Below are positions 57,651 through 59,516 of a DNA stretch of 64,000 nucleotides, one piece after another. A program made the position numbers and the translations under genes. Below the pieces are notes generated by a model, which saw only the letters and a program-made list of their open reading frames with translations, made no database searches and was not told the DNA's origin. The stretch's first letter is position 1; every line of letters begins with the position of its first letter. The stretch comes from a virus. The stretch is taken from positions 32,001 through 96,000 of IMG/VR virus record IMGVR_UViG_3300042396_000723, one strand, 5' to 3'.

Positions 57651-59516
57651 ATGATCATAGAGACTAAATCAGCCCCAACAAAAGCTCAAATGCAAGCAGC
57701 GATCGCCCAGACTCTTGCTCTTCCTTTTGCCTATAACTCCCCAGTGGATGTGATGGACTTTAAGGTAGATGGCACGGGTAAAATATCAGGGCGATTCAAG
57801 GATTCTGCCCGTCCAAGGGTGTTTGATTTTGAGTTAGATGGAAATACCGTCAACTTCAAACCTTACACGACAGGACGTATGGATTCGGACGATGCAGTGG
57901 AACAATGGGAGGAGTTCTCGTCAGGGTATTCCTATCGTTTTGATGCTAAGGCAAAAGCCAAGGCGAAAAGCAAGACAGGAGACTCCAAGAAACCCCAATG
58001 CGTTAAACCCACAGCATATAATTGCGGAAAAGCCTGTATAAATATTAATAATAATTGTAAATCCAACCCCGACGATGCTAACTCAAAGGATCGTTTAGAA
58101 AAACTGAAAGCTGCTGGTATTGATTACGCTAAAGAAACTAAGAAATCCACTCCTAAATCTACCGCAAAAACCAAGAAAGAGGTAGAAAAACCACCGGAAA
58201 TAGATAAAACCCCTAAAATAGATAAAACCCCTGAAAAGATAGAGGGAAAGGCTACCGAGTCCAAATCCCTTAATTTAGTAGGAAAAGGGGATCACGAGTC
58301 CGTCCCCAAAGATGCGAATGAATACTATGAAGCAATGAAAACATCGGGCAATCCTATCTCTTATGACGATGCCATAAAGATTACCGGAGCCGTTAGAGAG
58401 TGGACGGAGGATGCTTCTTATATTAGGGAATCTCAAAAAGCAGGGAAATACAGCATTATTGCCGACCGGATTAATGATTACGTTAAAAGTTCAACGCCAT
58501 TCAAGGGCGAAATTTATCGAGGCATCTCCTTCGGATCAACAGATGAGGCTTTGAGTTGGGCTAAGGGAGATAGTGATGGGATATTAGATAATCAGAATGC
58601 CCATGCTTCTTGGACTTCTAACTGGGATAAAGCCAGAAAGTTTGCTGGTAACAATTCGGTAAACGACTTTACATCGCAACCTGTCATTATCAAAACAAAT
58701 AATAAGTCGGGTGCCTCCATCAAAAACCTAAGCAACATTGGCACAGAAGATGAGGTAGTGGTTGTCAAAGACACTCGCCATCGGGTTAAGAATGTTGTAT
58801 ACGAAGATGGTGTTTTGATCGTTGAGACAGAAGAAGTTTCTCCAGATGAGGGAAAGAAAGCGCCTGAACCATCACCAGAAATAACTAAACCCCAAAAAGA
58901 ATCCGAGGAAAAGGCAGTTAAACAACCCGAAAATAAACCCAAAAACCTTAATTTAGTGGGCAAAGGCGATCATGAATCCATGCCATCAAGCCACAAAGAG
59001 TATTATAAAGCACTGAAAAAAGCAGGGGTCAATATTTCTGAGAAGGAGGCAGCAGCCACCACTACAGCCATCTATAAATGGACGAGGAATGCTAACGACA
59101 TCCGAGCCGATCAAAAGGCAGGAGAGGAGAACGAAGATGCAAATCGAATCTCTAATTATGTCAGGAACTCAACCCCATACAAAGGCGAAGTTTACCGAGG
59201 GATTCACTTTGAAACCAAAGAGGAGGCTTTAAACTGGACTAAAGGCGACAAGGATGGAGTGCTAGATAATCAAGGTGCTCACGCCTCTTGGTCATCTAGC
59301 CTTAAAACAGCAGAAGAATTTTCAGACGATTTCTTTATTGAGGAAAAAAGATATCCTGTTGTCATTAAATCAATCAACAAATCAGGTGCTTCTATTAAGA
59401 ATTTAAGCAACATCAAAGAAGAAGACGAGGTTATGGTTTTAAAGGATACTCGCCATCGGGTTAAAAGTGTCAGGGAAGAAAACGGACGGATTATTGTTGA
59501 AGCTGAGGAAGTATAG
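57651..59516 (+). CDS. polymorphic effector family member D with two tandem ADP-ribosyltransferase-like domains
   Basis: 621 aa; shared N-domain and Cys knuckle; two ~190-aa repeats each with YRG (58515-58523; 59193-59201), S-x-S (WTS/WSS) and E-D-E-hydrophobic (58746-58754; 59421-59429) in R-S-ExE order. Confidence 0.55.
   Translation: MIIETKSAPTKAQMQAAIAQTLALPFAYNSPVDVMDFKVDGTGKISGRFKDSARPRVFDFELDGNTVNFKPYTTGRMDSDDAVEQWEEFSSGYSYRFDAKAKAKAKSKTGDSKKPQCVKPTAYNCGKACININNNCKSNPDDANSKDRLEKLKAAGIDYAKETKKSTPKSTAKTKKEVEKPPEIDKTPKIDKTPEKIEGKATESKSLNLVGKGDHESVPKDANEYYEAMKTSGNPISYDDAIKITGAVREWTEDASYIRESQKAGKYSIIADRINDYVKSSTPFKGEIYRGISFGSTDEALSWAKGDSDGILDNQNAHASWTSNWDKARKFAGNNSVNDFTSQPVIIKTNNKSGASIKNLSNIGTEDEVVVVKDTRHRVKNVVYEDGVLIVETEEVSPDEGKKAPEPSPEITKPQKESEEKAVKQPENKPKNLNLVGKGDHESMPSSHKEYYKALKKAGVNISEKEAAATTTAIYKWTRNANDIRADQKAGEENEDANRISNYVRNSTPYKGEVYRGIHFETKEEALNWTKGDKDGVLDNQGAHASWSSSLKTAEEFSDDFFIEEKRYPVVIKSINKSGASIKNLSNIKEEDEVMVLKDTRHRVKSVREENGRIIVEAEEV

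Follow-up and report, generated by a model that had tools for sequence, protein, structure and literature searches.

Tandem ADP-ribosyltransferase domains predicted on a multi-copy carrier module in the head-gene region of a PaV-LD-like Planktothrix cyanophage

T4 Alt is a capsid-packaged ADP-ribosyltransferase (ART) that is injected and modifies host RNA polymerase. Binary-toxin components such as iota Ia, C2I and Vip2 have two ART folds, of which the C-terminal one is understood to be catalytic and the N-terminal one to be an inactive adaptor for the B component. Vis, an NAD+-arginine ART of Vibrio splendidus (PDB 4xzj/4xzk/4y1w), is a single-domain, stand-alone bacterial toxin. Phage ARTs adjoining or fused to head proteins have been argued, after T4 Alt, to be packaged and injected (PMC5512222, PMC9503650), and MuF- or portal-fused effectors (PMC5576092), including Alt/VIP2-family ARTs on MuF (PMC9503650), combine a head-associated N-terminus with variable C-terminal enzymatic cargo. 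Polyvalent proteins are known to contain arrays of up to 12 ART copies from the H-Y-D clade, and the study describing them stated that genuine polyvalent proteins lack R-S-E ARTs (PMC5512222). Here we report the analysis of a 64,000-nucleotide stretch of viral DNA (the window; positions 32,001 to 96,000 of IMG/VR record IMGVR_UViG_3300042396_000723), in which one open reading frame (ORF), designated ORF D, is predicted to encode two tandem R-S-E ARTs behind an N-terminal carrier module.

The initial annotation of this DNA had described two consecutive repeats of ~190 aa in ORF D, with the motif order of arginine-specific ARTs. The repeats were borne out by BLASTP, which aligned residues 205-396 with 431-621 over 192 positions with one gap (57% identity, E 1e-75). 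Repeat 1 opens with KSLNLVGKGDHES at aa 205 (nt 58263), one residue after codon 204, at which the annotated feature had begun (58260), and repeat 2 extends from aa 431 (nt 58941) to the C-terminus. All six motif peptides quoted in the annotation are present: EIYRGISF (aa 287), AHASWTSN (aa 317) and GTEDEVVVV (aa 364) in repeat 1, and EVYRGIHF (aa 513), AHASWSSS (aa 543) and KEEDEVMVL (aa 589) in repeat 2. Their order stands as given, and the distances of about 33 and about 44 aa are slightly, though not materially, off: R and S lie 30 aa apart in each repeat, and the catalytic (second) E follows S by 48 aa in repeat 1 and by 47 aa in repeat 2. The spaced expression [YFH]RG..S.[ST]..[EQ].E[VIL] matched ORF D twice; because only 4 of 2000 residue shuffles gave at least one match, the motif pattern is not attributable to chance.

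The whole ORF D protein matched the Pfam ART family PF01129 at 25.2 bits (cut-off 22.3), with the single repeats at 18.3 and 12.0 bits, both under this cut-off, and matched ADPrib_exo_Tox (PF03496) at 17.1 bits, under its cut-off of 23.4. A weak XopAI match in NCBIfam (22.6 bits against a cut-off of 300) fits the ART assignment and is uninformative. A word-indexed homologue search with repeat 2 returned 2 matches only, and an exhaustive HMMER search was needed; with the repeats as queries, this retrieved 855 proteins at E ≤ 1e-3. An alignment of 35 diverse homologous domain instances (A2) served as the family profile. Among these domains, 21 of 35 matched PF01129 and 20 of 35 matched PF03496 at E ≤ 0.01 (best 6e-9). 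Against PDB sequences, a single-sequence search with the 621-aa protein gave no matches. The family profile matched Vis best (1.2e-19 over ~135 residues), followed by Tre1 (3.8e-9), HopU1 (2.8e-7), XopAI (1e-5) and ExoT (8e-5), with weak matches (6e-4 to 5e-3) that included Vip2 (6e-4) and C2I (3e-3), the latter two spanning just the C-terminal 40-90 residues. In the profile alignments, YRG and the catalytic Glu line up with those of Vis and Tre1, SxS with T-S-T-S of Vis, and E-x-E with E-A-E of Vis, residue for residue, at an overall identity to Vis of ~17-18%.

An AlphaFold2 (AF2) model of repeat 2 reached a pLDDT of 73.8, with one of the five models confident. In a Foldseek search of the PDB with this model, the best 50 of 67 matches (E ≤ 0.001) were all ARTs, with E from 1e-7 to 4e-4. 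Vis was the best match by structure as well (E 1e-7, TM 0.56), and the matches listed also include HopU1, Tre1, C3, XopAI, ExoS and CDTa. Among viral models, ART-bearing minor capsid, portal and head-morphogenesis proteins were matched at 1e-9 to 1e-7, and Alt-like proteins of T4-type phages at 1e-5 to 1e-4.

Conservation was assessed across 163 aligned domain instances. The Arg and the catalytic Glu are present in all 163 and the first Ser in 162; the third position of SxS is S or T in 161, and the first position of [E/Q]-x-E is E or Q in 157 (E 148, Q 9). The only invariant columns in A2 are R87, S117 and E164. The R-S-E (cholera-toxin-like or C2-C3-type) class is defined by an Arg on strand 1 within an aromatic-R-G sequence, an S-x-S (STS) motif some 25-45 residues further on, [E/Q]-x-E in the ARTT loop, and a fold of N-terminal helices and a split beta-sandwich. 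The corresponding motifs in ORF D are Y-R290-G, S320-W-T and E366-D-E368 in repeat 1, and Y-R516-G, S546-W-S and E591-D-E593 in repeat 2. Because curated profiles, family profile, structure model and conservation, four independent lines, agree, the two domains are assigned on sequence grounds as R-S-E mono-ADP-ribosyltransferases, true homologues of bacterial toxin and effector ARTs that carry all the sequence-level defining features of the class. The profile, structure and motif-conservation checks proposed with the initial annotation thus uphold its class assignment. It had likened the domains to iota/C2/Vip2 and T4 Alt/Mod; the closest relatives are instead Vis, Tre1 and HopU1, and no sequence similarity to T4 Alt itself was detectable.

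A conserved stretch of the form G-[DK]-G-[TSD]-H-[ED]-x2-P occurs at the start of each ART repeat (58272-58310 and 58950-58988), before the first helix. Homologues with as little as ~25% identity retain it as G-[TS]-H-[EDN]. The model shows no structure for this stretch, which may belong to the active enzyme or be a site of protease processing.

Comparison with the described systems shows partial likeness to each. Unlike Vis, the ORF D ARTs are arranged in tandem, follow a phage-specific N-terminal module and are encoded among head genes. T4 Alt is likewise an R-S-E mono-ART of a phage, and delivery with the DNA is proposed for ORF D as well; Alt, however, has one ART and a T4-type capsid-targeting sequence, whereas ORF D has two ARTs and a different, uncharacterised carrier whose packaging we infer. 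Against the A2 profile, T4 Alt gave an hhalign probability of 0.6% and 6 bits in hmmsearch with filters off, a weak test in that Alt entered as a single sequence; with similarity undetectable by either program, the domains were not assigned to the T4 Alt family. ORF D has in common with iota Ia, C2I and Vip2 two R-S-ExE ART folds arising by duplication in one polypeptide, and differs from them in having catalytic residues in both copies and no B component. Like polyvalent proteins, it unites several effector domains in a single chain whose gene lies with virion genes, and the window portal carries a typical InPase domain; its array is nevertheless R-S-E, with one kind of enzymatic domain only. 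A relative, P0043, combines NUDIX, ART-PolyVal and three R-S-E ARTs. Functionally, ORF D most resembles Alt and the MuF- or portal-fused ART effectors. It shares the plan of a head-associated N-terminus and variable enzymatic cargo with the latter, among them cyanophage P-SS2 gp030, and departs from them in that the carrier is not MuF, that there are eight carrier genes per genome instead of one, and that the cargo consists of tandem domains of identical type.

Positions 56000 to 63600 of the window are ~95% identical in nucleotide sequence, over 76% of the query, to the Planktothrix phage PaV-LD (NC_016564), which identifies the source, by sequence, as a PaV-LD-like Planktothrix cyanophage. 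Planktothrix agardhii is a bloom-forming, toxin-producing cyanobacterium, and PaV-LD is its reference phage. By gene content, the surroundings of ORF D are a head-morphogenesis module (Table 1): ORF D lies between the major capsid protein gene and more carrier paralogues, which directly follow it, with the portal and prohead protease genes upstream. Its orthologue in PaV-LD, ORF079R, goes by the name 'hypothetical protein', and so do all named members of its 90% cluster. An exact-sequence look-up found no record of the ORF D protein in public assemblies, and the supplements of the CL131 paper and the NAD-ADPr survey hold nothing on ORF079R. In PaV-LD, the orthologue of paralogue F is ORF081R, which bears the annotation 'virion structural protein'. 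The ART clade also has more distant members that occur as fusions to Portal_Mu plus Phage_Mu_F or to portal. P-SS2 gp030 consists of MuF, a Zeta toxin and an ART of the same clade (107 bits), and a mean of 96.5 peptides from it was found in purified virions (PMC2784084).

The carrier itself was compared with known domains. The N-terminal 203 aa of ORF D have no Pfam match, including to MuF (PF04233), and a carrier profile had no match among PDB sequences. The AF2 model of the carrier (pLDDT 71) had no significant fold match in a Foldseek search of the PDB (best E 0.18, to Csm1, judged noise), and hhalign against the MuF segment of P0042 gave a probability of 0.1%. On these grounds, identification of the carrier as MuF was rejected.

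We propose that ORF D encodes a modular virion-delivered effector, with flexible Lys/Pro/Glu linkers between its domains, which is packaged in the capsid via the carrier and injected, and of which both ARTs act on host proteins; we put the probability of this reading at roughly 0.6. The protein would be made late, alongside head proteins, and incorporated into the capsid via the carrier, which would take the role of the MuF/portal fusions or of the T4 capsid-targeting sequence. Entering the host with the DNA, the ARTs would use host NAD+ to ADP-ribosylate host proteins, which would contribute to early takeover or disarming of the cell. The presence of two copies (one to three in relatives, some with QxE) would probably widen or split target specificity, and not provide one inert adaptor. 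Arginine is the most likely target residue, because of the ExE motif and because the nearest relatives (Vis, Tre1, HopU1, ExoS/T) are arginine-specific. The notion of an ART on a head-associated carrier, already put forward in the initial annotation, is coherent and backed by the genomic context, from which we infer packaging and injection.

Several points weigh against this proposal. For the carrier, no resemblance to MuF, portal or a solved structure could be detected, and the case for capsid targeting by it is contextual; nor could the ARTs be matched in sequence to T4 Alt. The ART model is of moderate confidence, with one in five models scoring well, and the comparison was made at the level of the fold. 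The dN/dS values against PaV-LD, 0.27 for ART1 and 0.19 for ART2, are based on just about 20 and 52 substitutions. Finally, some R-S-E ARTs modify DNA or RNA and not protein arginine, so that the target may be of another class.

Three other readings were considered. Tandem ART folds are a hallmark of the enzymatic components of iota, C2 and Vip2, and the family profile matches Vip2 and C2I weakly (6e-4 to 5e-3), so that ORF D could combine one catalytic ART with a degenerate adaptor, docking to a capsid or portal component instead of a pore-forming B subunit. These matches, however, are limited to the C-terminal end of the domain as noted above, and R, S-x-[ST] and E-x-E are kept in both repeats (R290/S320/E366,E368 and R516/S546/E591,E593). 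By the substitution data, both copies are under purifying selection of similar strength. Furthermore, 14 of 152 representative homologues have 2-5 ART copies per polypeptide and retain R-S-[ST]-[EQ]-E in nearly every copy, with QxE in place of ExE in some. Both ORF D copies look catalytically competent, and a model with one dead copy was rejected as very improbable because the triad is kept in both copies and in multi-copy relatives. Alternatively, the ARTs could modify nucleic acid or a small molecule, for example protecting phage DNA or blocking host translation. The pierisin/Scabin-type guanine ARTs and mRNA- or DNA-directed ARTs are precedents for such targets, and the protein would be packaged beside DNA. 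This is still a quite improbable reading, given that the nearest relatives (Vis, Tre1, HopU1, ExoS/T, XopAI) act, as far as is known, on protein arginine or on free arginine or agmatine, and that ExE, as opposed to QxE, is typical of arginine-specific enzymes (C3 versus iota-type ARTs). In its favor, the R-S-E clade includes DNA-modifying members (compare PMC7827354), and there is an mRNA-targeting ART (PMC11618068).

The enzyme might also be expressed late and remain unpackaged, acting in the producing cell during assembly or lysis, or being released at lysis as a polymorphic toxin against competitors, a role proposed for MuF toxins of temperate phages (PMC5576092). In its modular layout the protein does resemble polymorphic toxins, in which the toxin domain at the C-terminus varies and the N-terminus is conserved (PMC5576092), PaV-LD encodes an integrase, and gene content and ART copy number differ strongly among close relatives. 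Against this, the family resides inside the head-gene cluster and has one paralogue annotated as a virion structural protein, and the P-SS2 relative is found in virions. In addition, no ARH or macro immunity gene is annotated in PaV-LD 1-64434, a scan that left out about one third of the genome, and no dedicated search of the window ORFs was made. Nor was an export signal seen, although none was looked for. We consider the unpackaged enzyme unlikely, and retain the virion-delivered effector as the preferred reading.

The enzyme class and the head-packaged effector strategy are known; what is new is the carrier, the tandem copies predicted to be active, and the annotation in the reference Planktothrix phage. 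Recognition of PaV-LD ORFs as R-S-E ARTs provides a testable handle on host takeover by this phage group, and adds to the known head-packaged effectors one whose carrier is distinct from both MuF and portal. Multi-copy arrays in which all copies appear catalytically intact are thus formed by R-S-E ARTs as well as by the H-Y-D ARTs found in polyvalent proteins, a modest extension of the known picture. An ART in a head module will not surprise specialists in phage conflict; the noteworthy points are a carrier family not described before and, in a cyanophage relevant to blooms, ART arrays that are hypervariable.

Table 1. Positions of ORF D, its predicted domains and residues, and neighboring genes in the window.
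Feature	Position (nt)	Strand	Basis
ORF D, complete, 621 aa: carrier module, linker, ART1, linker, ART2	57651..59516	+	
N-terminal carrier module, aa 1-165	57651..58145	+	alignment, HMM scan, AF2 model
Linker 1, aa 166-204, Lys/Pro/Glu/Thr-rich, low-complexity	58146..58262	+	translation; edges from domain coordinates
Predicted ART domain 1, aa 205-396	58263..58838	+	
ART1 residues R290; S320; E366; E368	58518-58520; 58608-58610; 58746-58748; 58752-58754		
Linker 2, aa 397-430, Pro/Glu/Lys-rich	58839..58940	+	
Predicted ART domain 2, aa 431-621	58941..59513	+	
ART2 residues R516; S546; E591; E593	59196-59198; 59286-59288; 59421-59423; 59427-59429		
Portal, Phage_portal_3 + C-terminal InPase	41998-43986	+	Phage_portal_3 E 2e-44
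Paralogue A, 321 aa: full carrier + different C-terminal domain	44774..45739	+	
Paralogue B, 1094 aa: carrier + long middle region; ends 'KDAPILMLR*'	46182..49466	+	
Neck1/tail-completion protein	50447-50866		
Prohead protease	51345-52859		
XM1-gp53-like minor capsid protein	52859-53689		
Major capsid protein	53715-54668		
Paralogue C, 474 aa: carrier + unrelated C-terminal region	56125..57549	+	
Paralogue E, 372 aa: Cys-motif part + C-terminal HExxH (zincin-like) domain	59598..60716	+	
Paralogue F, 379 aa: Cys motif + HExxH domain	60713..61852	+	
Paralogue G, 483 aa: full carrier + HExxH domain	62134..63585	+	
Eighth family member, Cys-motif region, cut by window end	63569..64000	+	

In the carrier, the alpha/beta subdomain (aa ~10-100) is followed by four invariant cysteines, C-x7-C-x3-C-x6-C (aa 117-136, nt 57999-58058), and these by a long helix. 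The full module (aa 1-165) is common to ORF D and four window paralogues (A, B, C and G), and the Cys-motif part with the helix also occurs in paralogues E and F and in the gene starting near 63569. Counting either form, the window holds eight family members including ORF D, interspersed with the portal, protease and capsid genes. In all eight, the motif reads K-P-x-C-x7-C-G-x2-C-x6-C-K, and the helix after it has a conserved 'S..R..KLK' pattern. The model gives the motif three short strands; it may form a zinc knuckle or a disulphide knot. The distribution of the carrier is narrow, with 27 matches, all PaV-LD-like or Planktothrix-associated.

The C-terminal partners vary. Across the paralogues and their orthologues, the carrier is joined to one to three ARTs, HExxH, GNAT, ParB-like or other regions; the relative P0011 has an ART plus GNAT, the relative P0162 has a ParB-like Pfam match, and P0016, an orthologue of paralogue C, has an ART in place of the C-terminal region. 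In the window copy of paralogue C, the C-terminal half has no Pfam match and contains two segments of ~40 aa that are similar by eye, 'IPIPRMREELKGRVKAEDFDKWMLQSQADNDNIRLSEGQ' and 'NLIPIHELRKTLGDKVSRGDFNNLLMEMQANDKVQLIGGQ'. The HExxH motifs of paralogues E, F and G are VVHEMSHW, IVHELAHW and IIHESGHW, respectively. These three share a 'VTKVDKWL...EILSMG...DPEMFDFIYSVVR' tail and match phrog_33618; a weak Pfam zincin match was obtained for paralogue F only. The HExxH domains are probably metallopeptidase cargo on the same carrier. As a tentative hypothesis, more doubtful than the effector role of ORF D itself, the carrier may be an undescribed capsid-incorporation (cargo-loading) domain that replaces MuF in PaV-LD-like cyanophages. 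The eight genes would then form a fast-evolving family that loads ART (1-3 copies, ExE or QxE), HExxH, GNAT and ParB-like cassettes for injection into Planktothrix, with the tandem ARTs having diverged to different host targets.

An HMM scan of the window found only the two ART domains of ORF D. PaV-LD has five, in ORF062R, ORF066R, ORF079R (two) and ORF085R, and the three ART-bearing ORFs other than ORF079R are named 'minor head protein'. This label probably stems from the ART part of MuF-ART fusions and not from a head-protein domain. The eighth family member, at the window end, is probably the orthologue of PaV-LD ORF085R (360 aa, Cys motif and one ART); since this counterpart has one ART, the ART total of the phage is probably three or more. 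Paralogue B ends with '...EEIVKDAPILMLR*' at the exact point where P0005, P0012, P0013 and P0015 run on as '...EEIVKDAPKLIGDGTHEG...' into one or two ARTs, its orthologues continuing past 'KDAPILMLR' with 'KDAPKLIGDGTHEG...'. By this comparison, the ART cassette appears to have been lost from the window copy.

Among eight IMG/VR contigs, the ORF D orthologue has two ARTs in seven and one in the other, and neighboring carrier genes bear 0-3 ARTs, including a 948-aa gene with three. The latter (P0004; UViG_3300020541_000013, 3011-5854) directly follows a two-ART ORF D orthologue, giving five ARTs in two adjacent genes. Such variation in ART copy number is the pattern expected for a rapidly diversifying effector set.

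Two features of the PaV-LD record concern reading frames. At 38491-41488 and 42710-45603, ORF062R and ORF066R, which contain an ART alone, begin within the carrier genes ORF061R and ORF065R and overlap their 3' ends in another frame, and in relatives the carrier and ART share a frame; the split may be due to sequencing error, pseudogenisation or a programmed frameshift. Upstream of ORF079R (7584-7733), the first ~25 carrier codons are out of frame, and the annotation begins the ORF at an internal GTG, at 'VEVLDF'. In contrast, the carrier of ORF D in the window is intact from its ATG, and a frameshift or sequencing error in the reference genome is likely.

Elsewhere in the window, the C-terminus of the portal matches the InPase domain (PF18823, E 5e-26). 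InPase is an inorganic-pyrophosphatase-like domain described in phage polyvalent proteins, and the portal copy is a candidate for a second head-delivered enzyme of the same module. The ORF after paralogue B (49642-50370, 242 aa) has weak matches to Ant/BstA-like PHROGs.

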